From a virus (lineage: Duplodnaviria > Heunggongvirae > Uroviricota > Caudoviricetes): a stretch of DNA of 15,350 nt. Positions 1,926 through 7,552 of the stretch are shown here, piece after piece. Under the pieces are notes generated by a model. The model did no database searches, was not told the DNA's origin, and was given only the letters and a program-made list of their open reading frames with translations. Location of the stretch: the IMG/VR virus record IMGVR_UViG_2690316153_000018; one strand, given 5' to 3'. The translations under genes were made by a program, and so were the position numbers. Numbering within the stretch: position 1 is the stretch's first letter; every line of letters starts with the position of its first letter.

Positions 1926-3029
1926 TCAAACAATCTGGAAAATATTTCTTGGATTTGTAATAGGTCTGTTGATGGAGAACAACTCACGAATTAAATCTTG
2001 GCTCAAGCCAGTTTTCATAAGAATTCTTAGCCAGGTTGCATCATCCAGCATTTCAATCGCCTCGGCCAGCATACCGGGTTCTTCAGGGCGCAAAAGTTCA
2101 TCACCAGGTTCAACTCTCGTATACCCTCTGGAATTAAGATGCATATAGCCAGTTCTTGCCTGTTCCTGGGTCAATAAGCCTAATGCGCTGGCTCGATAAA
2201 TACACATTTTAAGGCTGATTTTCCATCTAAGTTTAAATTCAACCAGAGCATTCCAGTCGAATTGCTTACCTCGTATTCGTGGAAATTCTTTAATGAAAGA
2301 TAACCTGGGAACTAATAAGGCGCTCGAAAAGTGATCGGCTTGTGATTCCGTAAGTTTATCACCTGTCGTTATGCCCTCATGCATTACTAAATGCCCTAAT
2401 TCATGACCTAAATCAGAGCGAAATCTACATATGCTTTTTTTAACATTGTTCCTGATGATAACAGGCCTGTTATTGTGAACAGTAAAAGCATCAACACGAT
2501 CATCGACTCCCGTAACATGCGCAACGATTACCCCTAAACTCTCCGCCAATTTAACCATTGATGATATAGGGCCAAGACCTAAATTCCAGGCACGGCGACA
2601 ATCTTCTGCCACTCGCTCAATATCATTCGGAGTAAGTAATTCAGCCCCTGGGTGCTCCGGTATGTTAACGTCAGGAAATTCGATTTCACCTTCAACAGCA
2701 GAAATTATAATATTAAGAATCTCAGCCCTGGCCAATACACTATTAGTCAGCGTTTGAGTCCTGGACTTCTTACTCCGAAAATGGCAGACATCACTTTCCA
2801 GAGCGTATTTTCGTTCAGTAAAAAGAAAACTGGACTTAATCATAAGCGCTGAAGATATTAACTCAAGACATTGCTCCGATGGCCTGCACCCCTTCTCCAG
2901 TTTGCTAACGAATTGCTTTGTCTTGCCAATTTTTTCGGCTAACTCTTCACAAGAAAGCCCAACAGCCATTCTCGCTAGTTTGAGCTTATCACCCCGATAC
3001 TCAGTGAAGTTATTCACCTGATGTTCCAT
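1926..3029 (-). CDS. Fusion protein: N-terminal XRE-family helix-turn-helix + C-terminal ImmA/IrrE-type (COG2856/DUF955-like) zinc metallopeptidase
   Basis: N-terminus LKLARMAVGLSCEELAEKIGKTKQFVSKLEKG is a typical XRE HTH. HExxH motif present in DLGHELGHLVMHEG. ORF track starts at GTG 3032; an ATG at 3029 is the likelier start. The 5' end overlaps the stop of the upstream gene by about 20 nt. Confidence 0.8.
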   Translation of the reverse strand: MEHQVNNFTEYRGDKLKLARMAVGLSCEELAEKIGKTKQFVSKLEKGCRPSEQCLELISSALMIKSSFLFTERKYALESDVCHFRSKKSRTQTLTNSVLARAEILNIIISAVEGEIEFPDVNIPEHPGAELLTPNDIERVAEDCRRAWNLGLGPISSMVKLAESLGVIVAHVTGVDDRVDAFTVHNNRPVIIRNNVKKSICRFRSDLGHELGHLVMHEGITTGDKLTESQADHFSSALLVPRLSFIKEFPRIRGKQFDWNALVEFKLRWKISLKMCIYRASALGLLTQEQARTGYMHLNSRGYTRVEPGDELLRPEEPGMLAEAIEMLDDATWLRILMKTGLSQDLIRELFSINRPITNPRNIFQIV

Positions 3030-3660
3030 CACTGCTCACATCCAAATCTTTATCCTTCGTACGCCGACGAAGAGGCACCTTATTAATCTCCGCTTCGTCA
3101 GGGAGTGTGTTATAATCAAGAGGCATAAGCGGCATCGATGCTGTAGATTGATGAGAAACTATACTAATCTGAGCACCATAAGTATTAAATCCAACAAGAG
3201 CTACCTCCCAACGAGGCAGTGTGGACTCTAATTCACCATCGCCCTCTTCGGATAAAAAAGGCTCAGCTATGACTCGCCATGTAATATCTTGCTCAGCCTC
3301 AACATCACCAAACAATGAGAGTTGCTCATACTCTACTTTATTTCGACGCAGACGATGTTTCTTTTTGGGGTTATTAATGCAATCTTTGGTAAATTGTAGC
3401 GGAACTTTATTTAAAGCAACTACATAGTCCAACCCCTTGGAAATCATCTCAAGGCCAGGAATTGCATCTTCATTTTGAATAAGATGATTTCTGACCCAAT
3501 CATAAGCCCTTACACCTTCAGACCAGTTGCTGTCTAATGCGTGCTTATGATAGTACAGCTGCTCAAGTACGTTAGCGATCTCCGCCAACAAGTGGCGAAC
3601 ATAGTTTTCAGCAAGATAAGGTTGAAATTCCCAACAAGGAGCTAACTGATTTTCATTCAT
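3010..3660 (-). CDS. hypothetical protein (216 aa), translationally coupled to the downstream HTH-peptidase gene
   Basis: ORF with ATG at 3660; its stop (3012..3010) overlaps the start of the HTH-ImmA gene. No motif I can assign. Confidence 0.7.
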   Translation of the reverse strand: MNENQLAPCWEFQPYLAENYVRHLLAEIANVLEQLYYHKHALDSNWSEGVRAYDWVRNHLIQNEDAIPGLEMISKGLDYVVALNKVPLQFTKDCINNPKKKHRLRRNKVEYEQLSLFGDVEAEQDITWRVIAEPFLSEEGDGELESTLPRWEVALVGFNTYGAQISIVSHQSTASMPLMPLDYNTLPDEAEINKVPLRRRTKDKDLDVSSDGTSGE

Positions 3661-3825: not shown

Positions 3826-3981
3826 TTACTCCTCAGGTTCGTAAGCTGTGAAGACAGCGACCTCCGTCTGGCCGGTTCGGATTCGTACCTCGCAGAGGTC
3901 TTTCCTCGTTACCAGTGCCGTCACTATGACGGTTAAACAGATGACGATCAGGGCGATTAACATCGCCTTTTGCTGCTTCAT
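3826..3981 (-). CDS. hokD: Hok/Gef-family small membrane toxin (51 aa from the internal ATG; the ORF track extends to 4038)
   Basis: Translation MKQQKAMLIALIVICLTVIVTALVTRKDLCEVRIRTGQTEVAVFTAYEPEE has a single TM helix and the conserved C-terminal Cys/Arg/Tyr-Glu pattern of Hok-family toxins. Matches my recollection of E. coli HokD (RelF). Confidence 0.8.
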   Translation of the reverse strand: MKQQKAMLIALIVICLTVIVTALVTRKDLCEVRIRTGQTEVAVFTAYEPEE

Positions 3982-4660
3982 AGCCTGCTTCTCCTTGCCT
4001 TTCGGCACGTAAGAGGCTAACCTACGTGTGTAGAGCATAGATATGGCCTCAGATTAATGTTAAGCGTCTTGCCGGACGCGTAATGTTAACTGGGGCTTTT
4101 CTCTATCTGCCTTTGGTGTTGATGCCCGAGGCAGATAGCCTCAAGCACCCGCAGCAATTCTACTTAACTACCGTTACCTCGCCAATATGAAATCAATCAG
4201 AAAGGTGATCCATAAGAACAACAGCAAGACAATAAATTGCCATTACAGCAGCAATAGCCAGCGCACATTTGAGAACCAGCACCACAACCTCCTGTATTGG
4301 ACGTACACCAGTCCTGATAAATATGAGGCTGTCTCGTCAGTGATTCAATACAACTACTGGGTATAGTTTCTATGATTTTGTTCTGTGGAAATGGAAAACA
4401 GCAACCAGTCACCACCAGCACTTCTTTAAACATGCCAAGTCACACGCAAGCCAACATTATAGTTCCCTTTGAGCGAGCAGATGAAGCTAGCAAAAATATT
4501 GATCACTTAGGATGCATTACTAACGTTGCTATGTGTTAACGAACAGGGAGTGGGTCATCAGCATAAATATTTATGCAGTAGGTTTCTTTTAGGACTAGAT
4601 TAATCAAAAACATTTAGATAAAATTATAAAATCAAGAAATTGGTGGCAATTAATCTTTAA

Positions 4661-4689
4661 TTGTGCCAGCTGAATTTCGTTATTATAGA
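4661..4689 (+). promoter_or_regulatory. Candidate sigma70 promoter for the membrane-protein/methyltransferase operon
   Basis: TTGTGC (4661..4666), 17-nt spacer, TATAGA (4684..4689), about 35 nt upstream of the ATG at 4725 in an AT-rich leader. By eye only. Confidence 0.3.
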
Positions 4690-4724
4690 AGATTAGCTTT
4701 TTTTTTGAGTGTTTGGAGAGTAAA

Positions 4725-5420
4725 ATGTTAGAACCACCAAAGAGTTATAATGAAATGTTGCCTATGCTCCATAAGGCGACTTTTATTACTACATTTATAT
4801 TTTACCTATCATTAGTCATTTATGGCTACATGCCATTGGTTGGCATTAATGCCAAGTATATCCCCCCCGTTAAAGACTACGAGGAATTTATTAAATGGAT
4901 ATTAACCTTTGGCATATTACCAATTGCATCTTCAGTTTTTTGGTCAGTAATTAGTGGAGCTTTAGATCTACATAATAATGTAGCAAAAATTATTGGAATA
5001 AGGAAGATGTGGGATAGTCATTTAATTATTAAACCATTAGCAAAAATTGCAGGCGTTACGAGAAAATTAACTACTGATGAATCTCACAAGGTAATGAGTA
5101 AACTGTATTACCCAGAAGTTAAAGAGTTAAAAGACAAACATTACGTTGAACTTTTCTGGAACAAAGTTTATTACTTTTGGGTTTTCTTTGAACATACAGT
5201 AATCGCATTTGTTACTATTTTAATAATAAGTATCGCCAAATTAACAAATATATTCTCTGTTACTGGCTCTTTAATTAATCTTTGGTTGTGGATTATTTCT
5301 CTTGTCGCATTTGACTTCCTTATTTTCATAGCATCAGTTAAACCAAGAACAGAAAGCCAAGTAAGACAAATACCTGATAGCAAAATAAAAGAATTCTTTA
5401 ACAATAACAATATTTTTTAA
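4725..5420 (+). CDS. Integral membrane protein with four predicted TM helices (2 TM + ~65-aa loop + 2 TM), function unknown
   Basis: ATG at 4725 preceded by GGAGAG at about 5-nt spacing (the ORF track starts at TTG 4713). Four hydrophobic stretches: ATFITTFIFYLSLVIYGYMPLVGI, FIKWILTFGILPIASSVFWSVISGAL, VYYFWVFFEHTVIAFVTILIISIA, TGSLINLWLWIISLVAFDFLIFIASV. Codon usage is strongly AT-rich. Confidence 0.8.
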   Translation: MLEPPKSYNEMLPMLHKATFITTFIFYLSLVIYGYMPLVGINAKYIPPVKDYEEFIKWILTFGILPIASSVFWSVISGALDLHNNVAKIIGIRKMWDSHLIIKPLAKIAGVTRKLTTDESHKVMSKLYYPEVKELKDKHYVELFWNKVYYFWVFFEHTVIAFVTILIISIAKLTNIFSVTGSLINLWLWIISLVAFDFLIFIASVKPRTESQVRQIPDSKIKEFFNNNNIF

Positions 5421-5426
5421 ACGAGG

Positions 5427-6086
5427 TTGATTTTGAATTACAAAATAAATGGAATAAACATACGTTCAGAAAATGCAGCGAAACCGCACACTATGCCATC
5501 TAACTATCTCTGTAAACAGATTGAAAGCACTAATAAAAATGGCAATGCCCTTGATTTTGGATGTGGAAAACTTAGATATTCAGAACAATTAGTAAATAAA
5601 TTTGAAACTGTGACATTTTTAGATTCCAGAAGACAACTAGAAAGAGTGCAAATTATCAGAGGTGTACAAACCACGATTCCAGATTACGTGATAAATAACT
5701 ATAAGAATGCTAATATTGTTTCTTATGAAAATATAGATAAAATAACAAATCATTATGATTTCATACTTTGCGCAAACGTGCTTTCCGCAATTCCATGTGA
5801 ATCCACAATTCACAAAGTCCTCAGTGCGATTAGAGAATTATTAAAGAGTGATGGTGAAGCACTGATTGTCAATCAATACAAAAGTTCTTATTTCAAGAGG
5901 TACGAGAGCGGTATTAAACATTTGCATGGGTATATATACCAAAACTCTCGCAATGCTTTCTACTATGGTTTATTAGATGTGGATACTGTAAGTAAAATAT
6001 GCTCAGATAATAATTTAGAAATAATAAAATCATGGAGCAAAGCAGGTAGTTCATATGTGGTTGTTGGTAAACATATACATATTTAG
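5427..6086 (+). CDS. Small class-I SAM-dependent methyltransferase-fold protein (about 217-219 aa), substrate unknown
   Basis: Motif I ALDFGCGKL, acidic residue ending beta-2 (TVTFLDS) and a motif-IV-like YDFILCANVLSAIP. Start is TTG at 5427 or 5433; GAGG at 5423..5426 gives good spacing to 5433. The first in-frame ATG is at 5493. Lies 6-12 nt after the stop of the membrane-protein gene. Confidence 0.7.
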   Translation: MILNYKINGINIRSENAAKPHTMPSNYLCKQIESTNKNGNALDFGCGKLRYSEQLVNKFETVTFLDSRRQLERVQIIRGVQTTIPDYVINNYKNANIVSYENIDKITNHYDFILCANVLSAIPCESTIHKVLSAIRELLKSDGEALIVNQYKSSYFKRYESGIKHLHGYIYQNSRNAFYYGLLDVDTVSKICSDNNLEIIKSWSKAGSSYVVVGKHIHI

Positions 6087-6400
6087 TTTATTTCAACAAA
6101 TTATTAGAAAGAGTGATTTGCTTGTTAATTATTAGCTCGGCAGTGCCGGATCAACATGACCCTGCCACTTAGGCCATTGCCGGTTTACCTACTTTTGTAA
6201 GGTTCAGCATGAAGTTTTTATATACTCTTCCTAATATCAATAGTGATGCTCGCTTATGTTAGCTGCTTCTTGTACATAGTAGCCTTCTCCGACAGTACTG
6301 CAATGAGCGGAGAGTAAAAGTCGATAAACAATAAGGAGGTTCACAATAAATATTTCTCGGTGAAACTTTCAAAGCATTCTCTGTTTTGCTAAATCGACAA

Positions 6401-7300
6401 TTATAAATCAACAACATTTAGTGTTATATCAATATTATTTAGCCTTGCAATCTCTGATGAATCACTTGCTATTTTAGCTTTTAATTTATCAATATTAATC
6501 ATATCTTCATGGCTTATATAAACCATATCACCTTGGTTAACTTTAGATTTGTTCACTATGGCTTGAATAACAGACAAATCATCCATTACACCTCTCATAA
6601 ATTTCACCATGCTTTGATCTTTGAAGTCAGATATCGATTTTGAACGTTGCTTACGTTGAATTGTTCCTTTTGTAATTACTTCATTAATTTCTTTTAAACC
6701 AGTGAGCATATCAGACAGACTGCCTTCGCAACTCATCCGATGTTTTATTGCATTGCGATTAATAATATTGAGTATAATTTCGAGTGAATCTTTATCACTC
6801 CATGGATGTAATGATGTATAATCATGATGACGTCGAATGGCGTCAATCATATCCTGGACCATATCTTCATCTGCTTTATCGCAAAGTTCATTCACGAAAT
6901 AGCTGGGGTCGATTATTTTACAATAACTTGGAGTTAGGTATCTTGAGGCTTTACAAAAACCAAAAATATATAAAGTAGAGTATTTATCTTTCAGACTCTC
7001 TCCTATTTCATTTATTTTCTCAAAAGATTCGATAGTTTTTTTAATTTTTGCTGGACTTGCATTCGTAGTAACTTGAACTGCTATCATGTTTTTATTATCA
7101 GCTAAATCAATGGCGGGAAAATTAACTTTAATCTGATTCATGTTTACCAGCTCACCCATTTTCAGCGCGCGAAACATAAAGATGGTCAATGACTCAATTA
7201 TTCTTTCCATGTCATGAAAGCCTGCCTGTTTGCGTTGCGCGATATAAAGCTGGAGTAGTGCAATATCACTCTGTAAGTTTCTAATAAGTGGATCAATCAT
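6401..7300 (-). CDS. hypothetical protein (299 aa); N-terminal region resembles, from memory, a SMEK-type domain
   Basis: ORF with ATG at 7300 and AAGGA about 9 nt upstream. N-terminal HDMERIIESL and NFPAIDLADNKNMIAVQVTTNASPAKIKKTIESF resemble the signature I associate with SMEK-domain proteins; not verified by HMM. AT-rich codon usage; convergent with the 4725..6086 operon. Confidence 0.75.
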   Translation of the reverse strand: MIDPLIRNLQSDIALLQLYIAQRKQAGFHDMERIIESLTIFMFRALKMGELVNMNQIKVNFPAIDLADNKNMIAVQVTTNASPAKIKKTIESFEKINEIGESLKDKYSTLYIFGFCKASRYLTPSYCKIIDPSYFVNELCDKADEDMVQDMIDAIRRHHDYTSLHPWSDKDSLEIILNIINRNAIKHRMSCEGSLSDMLTGLKEINEVITKGTIQRKQRSKSISDFKDQSMVKFMRGVMDDLSVIQAIVNKSKVNQGDMVYISHEDMINIDKLKAKIASDSSEIARLNNIDITLNVVDL

Positions 7301-7552
7301 AGCTAATAATCCTTTTCAATGAAGCTGGAGGTGTGTTTAACTATTAGTTAAATTTCTATTTTTATAGAAACAAGCTTTACAACTTCATCAAAGTTTCTCA
7401 AATCCTAATCCACTTTGCAAATCCACTAACCATGCTGAATGCTTTCTGTTGTTAAACATATCCGCTGCTGGCACCAAGCAGACAAACACACTAACTCTAC
7501 CCTACTCCACAAAAGAGCCAATCAATATCTGAACTAATAAACTTTAATCTCA

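Follow-up and report, generated by a model that had tools for sequence, protein, structure and literature searches.

Single-protein defence nucleases such as Shedu SduA join a PD-(D/E)xK nuclease to a variable non-catalytic domain, occur in defence islands and on mobile elements, and are presumed to be auto-inhibited. Three papers class the SMEK domain as an Mrr-like PD-(D/E)xK nuclease and give it the role of effector in clade S2B short prokaryotic Argonaute (pAgo) systems, where it reportedly shows weak collateral activity on double-stranded and single-stranded DNA, and one paper names AspBHI, a modification-dependent enzyme, as the nearest nuclease homologue of SMEK. A SMEK protein also appears as defence system DS-27, listed as 'SMEK' in the supplementary tables of the DefensePredictor study (DeWeirdt, Mahoney & Laub, Science 2026; PMC13092281). 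DS-27 is a single gene from an E. coli strain, located at 1216-2115 of contig NZ_QOXX01000051.1 and encoding the 299-amino-acid (aa) protein WP_087896215.1; it received DefensePredictor log-odds of 7.0 and HHblits log-odds of -2.2 against known defence proteins, and the tables give TRUE for both its defensive and its replicated entry (PMC13092281). On a low-copy plasmid in MG1655, DS-27 alone, preceded by its native upstream region, cut the plating of RB69 about 700-fold (-log(EOP) 2.85, where EOP is the efficiency of plating), and RB69 is its sole protection row; the system is not treated individually in that study, and mutants and a mechanism are absent there (PMC13092281). Here we analyse a stretch of viral DNA of 15,350 nucleotides (nt), IMG/VR record IMGVR_UViG_2690316153_000018, referred to below as the window, which contains a minus-strand gene for a 299-aa SMEK-domain protein. 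By sequence comparison this gene is a 99%-identical copy of the published phage-defence system DS-27, an identification that is already known. The gene, its two domains and its upstream region are as follows.

6401..7300, minus strand: coding sequence of the 299-aa SMEK-domain protein, with an ATG start and its stop codon at 6401-6403
6890..7288, minus strand: SMEK_N / Mrr-like PD-(D/E)xK nuclease domain, residues ~5-137, in which E36, D65, Q76 and K85 are invariant
6404..6889, minus strand: family-specific four-helix-bundle domain, residues 138-299, isoelectric point (pI) 5.5
7301..7479, minus strand: 5' non-coding region of ~180 nt that travels with the SMEK gene and is conserved in five genomic contexts

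The window protein resembles WP_087896215.1 in length, in two-domain layout and in forming a single-gene unit, and the two proteins agree at 296/299 residues (99.0%). The differences are K95E, I96T and M189V, and Met189 of the window allele is the family consensus. The defence phenotype is known for the DS-27 allele, and the classification of the window gene as a defence gene is therefore one demonstrated for a 99%-identical allele. Literature searches using the RefSeq accession and stand-alone SMEK proteins as queries returned no main-text mention, and the link to DS-27 was found in supplementary tables only.

Analysis of the open reading frame (ORF) confirmed the initial annotation of a 299-aa convergent gene. 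The ATG-started frame contains both peptides quoted there, HDMERIIESL at residues 29-38 and NFPAIDLADNKNMIAVQVTTNASPAKIKKTIESF at residues 60-93, and its product is identical to RefSeq WP_000566848.1. An AAGGA ribosome-binding site lies 9 nt before the ATG, and the island holding the gene has a GC content of 30-35% against 45-55% in the flanks. The gene is convergent with two plus-strand genes at 4713-6086 and runs in the same direction as the cro-like, replication and DUF977 genes, which bears out the earlier description of it as the sole island gene sharing its direction with the replication (early-right) operon. A search among 5.8 billion proteins recovered 108 homologues with a minimum identity of 42%, nearly always 290-310 aa long and aligned over 96-100% of the query, from Enterobacterales, Pseudomonas, Vibrio, Xanthomonas, Burkholderiales and others. 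The ratio of nonsynonymous to synonymous substitution rates (dN/dS) against five alleles was 0.14-0.27, with the N- and C-terminal halves alike. Because homologues extend to 42% identity and dN/dS is this low, the frame is a functional gene under purifying selection and not a chance ORF. Some E. coli copies are 899-nt matches annotated as two coding sequences, and truncated products of 119-187 aa are on record, which suggests that a frameshift sometimes inactivates the gene. One 3-kb contig labelled Streptomyces sp. (NZ_JBFBIU010000052.1) carries an 87%-identical copy of the enterobacterial gene and is most likely assembly contamination.

Model searches of the N-terminal domain gave clear assignments. 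The NCBIfam model NF033859 (SMEK_N) matched residues 5-95 with an E-value of 1.3e-30 and 105.1 bits (cut-off 30), and Pfam PF21941 matched residues 10-120 with an E-value of 2.2e-22 and 79.9 bits (cut-off 27). Both matches span the conserved core and are not confined to low-complexity residues, so the proposed SMEK-like N-terminus stands. The accompanying view of SMEK as only a domain of unknown function does not, since the literature cited above describes an Mrr-like PD-(D/E)xK effector of short pAgo systems. The best match among PDB sequences was the 'Mrr domain' of Kordia jejudonensis Mrr-APAZ (PDB 26bh; phmmer 7e-8, residues 26-137), and the core common to the two proteins reads NFPAIDLAD...A(V/F)Q(V/I)T...K. 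The N-terminal domain combines a restriction-endonuclease-like fold with homology to a solved member. The PADLOC Aga_REase (Argonaute-associated restriction endonuclease) model matched the first 146 residues at 1.4e-20. Among 52 family members with 17-49% identity, the putative catalytic residues E36, D65, Q76 and K85 never vary and T78 is at least 90% conserved. Because Thr78 takes the position of the QxK lysine, K85 is assumed to be the replacement lysine; this invariant residue of the following helix ('S-x-x-K' position) would substitute for the usual one. The pI of the nuclease domain is 8.9. A homologue search with the N-terminal domain only returned fragments alone.

The C-terminal domain was found in a single architecture. 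Its profile matched 88 proteins among 1.84 billion cluster representatives, in each case at ~135-300 of a ~300-aa protein or as a fragment, and SMEK_N was carried by 52/52 full-length proteins. These two results indicate that the domain occurs solely fused to SMEK_N. Its conserved residues, D169, R182, A184, E192, G193, G212 and K221, map to loops between helices or to the helix ends according to the DSSP strings. Scans of the C-terminal half with Pfam, NCBIfam, PHROGs and PADLOC returned nothing specific, including 22 C-terminal domains at E<=10; a PDB profile search with the domain gave no match, and Foldseek against the PDB gave none at E<=0.001. The DS-27 study assigns residues 8-139 to PD-(D/E)XK (SMEK_N) and residues 169-292 to DUF6650, the latter by HHpred with a probability of 0.88, and lists DUF6650 among the domains newly tied to defence (PMC13092281). 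This link is absent at the HMMER level, where hmmscan of the 22 C-terminal domains at E<=10 produced no match to PF20355 (DUF6650). The initial annotation had found no motif in the C-terminal two-thirds, and this holds for HMMER-level matches to Pfam, NCBIfam and the PDB.

Comparison with other nuclease systems further defines the protein. Its N-terminal nuclease domain is homologous to that of the short-pAgo SMEK/Mrr-APAZ effectors (clade S2B, the KjAgo partner). In short-pAgo systems APAZ is fused to the nuclease, whereas the window protein lacks APAZ: the PADLOC match covers model positions 9-143 of 463 and stops there, and a 160-residue helical bundle stands in place of APAZ. No Argonaute/PIWI (MID-PIWI) gene was found near SMEK in any annotated locus. 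Membership of a short-Argonaute system was considered and rejected, as there is neither an APAZ domain nor an adjacent pAgo gene, and activation therefore cannot depend on guide RNA and target DNA. From the Mrr and MspJI-AspBHI type IV enzymes the protein differs by its D65...Q76-V-T78 motif, in which the lysine seems to come from the following helix (K85), by the lack of a recognised modified-DNA reader and by its N-terminal nuclease. Like the Shedu SduA class it is one polypeptide with a nuclease and a non-catalytic domain; unlike that class, it has a distinct non-catalytic domain at the opposite protein end, no sequence relationship was detected between the two, and its PADLOC matches are to pAgo-associated restriction endonuclease models only.

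The genomic contexts of the SMEK gene are typical of defence genes. In Enterobacter it shares an integrase island at proA with genes of the AAA_13 and HNH_2 families and, in a second setting, adjoins SymE and TacAT at a chromosomal site. It adjoins SLATT_5 in Pseudomonas and Abi_alpha in Vibrio cyclitrophicus, here between matE and gcvP; in Citrobacter it is flanked by a Lamassu-like operon and AAA_15/21 genes, and in Xanthomonas it is near Gabija-like OLD-TOPRIM and UvrD genes and a PIN gene. The V. parahaemolyticus homologue (45% identity, positions 1355-2236 of locus L041) is a single-gene integron cassette between attC-like repeats at 1149-1269 and 2243-2363, and its long cassette array also carries SduA_C (Shedu-type), HNH and FRG genes. 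All-against-all BLASTP of the neighbours in 17 loci revealed no common gene family, nor is one shared among 15 loci of different species, and the downstream genes in Pseudomonas and Vibrio bear no relation to each other. The gene has no required conserved partner. A toxin-antitoxin reading fails on the lack of a shared neighbour or antitoxin, on the single-gene integron cassette and on the unrelated downstream genes in Pseudomonas and Vibrio. Full-length copies numbered 0 in 50,697 phage genomes and 1 in 72,556 plasmids.

In five unrelated contexts the region 7301-7479 accompanies the gene, and it diverges at ~0.5-0.85 of the synonymous rate. Because it travels with the gene and diverges slowly, and because DS-27 is active from its native upstream DNA, it is presumed to be the gene's own promoter/leader. 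The initial annotation had suggested expression together with the prophage, and this finds no support given the gene's own ~180-nt 5' region, its copies outside prophages and the function of DS-27 from native upstream DNA; read-through from the replication operon on induction is a possible additional source of transcript. No terminator was found at the gene by scan. A structured RNA in the region is unsupported (RNAalifold -13 kcal/mol only, with a positive covariation term), as is an upstream peptide, since the 11-codon upstream ORF is not conserved; the Rfam scan returned sok only. At the outer edge of the conserved region, at 7455-7480 on the minus strand, lies a GC-rich hairpin, GTCTGCTTGG TGCCAG CAGCGGAT, which is kept in 4/5 contexts with some compensatory changes and has no U-tract. 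This hairpin may act as a weak terminator or an insulator, or it may be the scar of a recombination event.

Taken with the identity to DS-27 at 99%, these data lead us to read the window gene as a stand-alone single-protein anti-phage defence nuclease, with a probability of roughly 0.65. From the homology, the invariant residues and the narrow phage spectrum we infer both nuclease action and sensing by the C-terminal domain. The N-terminal Mrr-like SMEK_N domain would be the effector that cuts DNA, and the acidic C-terminal four-helix bundle would act as a regulatory or sensing module that keeps the nuclease off. A phage-specific cue, present in RB69 and not in most of the other tested phages, might then release or oligomerise the nuclease, with degradation of phage and/or host DNA as the probable outcome, as in abortive infection. 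In a lysogen the protein would be made from its own promoter region at 7301-7479 and would shield the prophage host from superinfection, like the hok/sok and Rosmer loci of the same window described below.

Several points weigh against this reading. DS-27 protection is recorded for 1/24 phages, and the study reports no nuclease activity, catalytic mutant or trigger for DS-27 (PMC13092281), which is why the division into effector and sensor is one that we infer. The published phenotype belongs to the DS-27 allele, from which the window allele differs by M189V at a position that is at least 90% conserved. The canonical (D/E/Q)xK lysine position is occupied by Thr78, and its substitution by K85 is an assumption. 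The C-terminal domain resembles generic four-helix bundles only, which agrees equally well with a sensor, with an oligomerisation module and with a structural element of the nuclease. Finally, the scan upstream of the gene identified no consensus sigma-70 promoter.

One rival explanation is a Type IV modification-dependent restriction endonuclease, in which the Mrr-like domain would cut modified phage DNA, the C-terminal domain would read the modification and the host would be spared. The Mrr-like nuclease domain, and AspBHI as its nearest named nuclease homologue, agree with such an enzyme, as does the lack of a cognate DNA methyltransferase and of a partner gene, which is expected of Type IV enzymes. 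The sole restricted phage, RB69, is T-even and has hypermodified cytosines. Against this, T4 DNA carries glucosyl-hydroxymethylcytosine (glucosyl-hmC), and T4 was in the same phage panel without a protection row for DS-27. Pfam and NCBIfam scans detected no DNA-reading fold, be it SRA, winged-helix, PUA-like or another, the C-terminal domain being an acidic four-helix bundle of pI 5.5, and the nuclease-first domain order is unusual among Mrr/MspJI-type enzymes. We judge this explanation unlikely: it is possible but weaker than a stand-alone gated nuclease. A different proposal is that the protein serves the phage, either as a nuclease supplied by read-through after induction that degrades host or competitor DNA, or as an addiction toxin that stabilises the element. 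The gene does follow the replication and Ren-like genes directly and in the same direction, no strong intrinsic terminator is predicted in the interval, and the few frameshifted E. coli copies (899-nt) could reflect a cost of carriage. Yet the same gene and 5' region occur in non-phage islands, at plain chromosomal sites and in integron arrays, there is no conserved antitoxin-like neighbour, none of the 50,697 phage genomes holds a full-length copy, and the DS-27 defence phenotype was obtained without any prophage. A role on behalf of the phage is thus highly improbable. The remaining rival concerns the genes that face SMEK in the same block.

4567..7472, no strand assigned: low-GC composite block of the ymfE-like, ymfD-like and convergent SMEK genes, recurring as a unit at 83% DNA identity
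4713/4725-5420, plus strand: ymfE-like membrane gene
5427-6086, plus strand: ymfD-like class I S-adenosylmethionine (SAM) methyltransferase

The membrane/METHYLTRANSFERASE pair is homologous to ymfE/ymfD and shares 69% DNA identity with the e14 copies in K-12. The ymfE-like membrane protein has ~4 hydrophobic segments, and the ymfD-like methyltransferase matches TehB/Methyltransf_12/23 models and not DNA methyltransferase families. A Type II-like restriction-modification system with the neighbouring methyltransferase was considered and rejected, as the methyltransferase is not of DNA type and many genomes carry one of the two genes but lack the other. It could still be supposed that the ymfE-like, ymfD-like and SMEK genes work together as a single system, such as a nuclease accompanied by a partner for modification or immunity, so that the role of SMEK depends on the pair. 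Complete E. coli genomes hold 146 SMEK copies at >=99% and 5 at 80-90% DNA identity (one of the latter, on inspection, at 87.8%), and the counts for the pair are equal. The pair accompanies 151/152 E. coli SMEK copies; a 79% copy stands alone, adjoining an integrase. The whole 4567-7472 block recurs in a different phage/prophage backbone at 83% DNA identity, and the same convergent three-gene order is found on a Citrobacter IncHI2 plasmid. In addition, the homologous ymfED genes of K-12 e14 adjoin the abortive-infection gene lit. These associations are countered by the wider distribution of the genes. In the more distant lineages examined, SMEK homologues at <=83% identity never occur with the pair, and the pair occurs without SMEK in an Enterobacter prophage (following O/P), in P2-like prophages (following ogr), in Cronobacter and, as e14 ymfED, in 283 E. 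coli genomes. The independent occurrence of SMEK, which the initial annotation had named as a refuting observation, therefore holds for every more distant lineage examined and, one copy apart, not for E. coli. The TehB/Methyltransf_12/23-type methyltransferase and the cloning and scoring of DS-27 as a single gene also speak against a three-gene system, which we regard as distinctly improbable.

The pair itself is always a tight two-gene unit and is also seen in prophage cargo slots beside umuDC-like genes; it looks like an independent accessory module. Because the pair occurs alone, SMEK occurs alone in distant lineages and DS-27 was scored as a single gene, we read the 4567-7472 block as two independent cargo units that were joined recently, an arrangement that the defence gene does not require. 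A bolder proposal, conceivable and somewhat doubtful, is that the C-terminal bundle is an uncharacterised phage-sensing or oligomerisation switch that licenses an Argonaute-type SMEK/Mrr nuclease without Argonaute, and that in enterobacterial prophages the nuclease may also have been packaged with the ymfE/ymfD-like pair as a cooperating three-gene cassette. If so, the SMEK/Mrr effector domain would have come under the control of a new trigger, one at the protein level and specific for RB69-like phages. Because defence against RB69 was already published in 2026, identification of the window gene adds little, and the value of the locus as a stand-alone defence nuclease lies in mechanism. An effector common to short-Argonaute systems, joined to a 160-residue helical domain found nowhere else, would make a compact model for the gating of Mrr-like nucleases. 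Starting points for experiments are the strict two-domain fusion, the integron cassette that holds this gene alone, its own conserved leader and a linkage to the ymfE/ymfD-like pair that recurs without being essential.

The window as a whole is a Qin-like lambdoid prophage of E. coli; a P2-type hotspot was the first idea and was dropped once this was recognised. Its gene content comprises DicA/DicC-type immunity genes, YdaT, an O-like replication protein, a Ren-like DUF977 protein, the island, hok/sok, DUF968, RusA and Q. Two further accessory loci were found in the window.

1926-3660, minus strand: Rosmer pair, overlapping genes RmrT (216 aa) and RmrA (368 aa), found by PADLOC
3826-4150, minus strand: hok/mok-type toxin gene and sok antitoxin RNA (PHROG MokW-like, 8e-33; Rfam RF01794, 114 bits, 2.7e-26)

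RmrA (helix-turn-helix and Peptidase_M78) scored 6e-105 and RmrT 5e-25 with PADLOC. The Rosmer insert is ~1.85 kb long with 42% GC, and strain C7 lacks it in a prophage that is nearly identical in other respects; hok/sok is placed between Rosmer and the low-GC island. The slot between the Ren-like DUF977 gene and hokD, equivalent to ~4450-7480 of the window, is a variable defence hotspot. Its homology breakpoints cluster at ~7458-7476 of the window, and the cargo that other E. coli prophages carry in this slot includes a KwaB-like gene with QueH, a beta-family/sce7726 pair, an 865-aa AAA ATPase and others.
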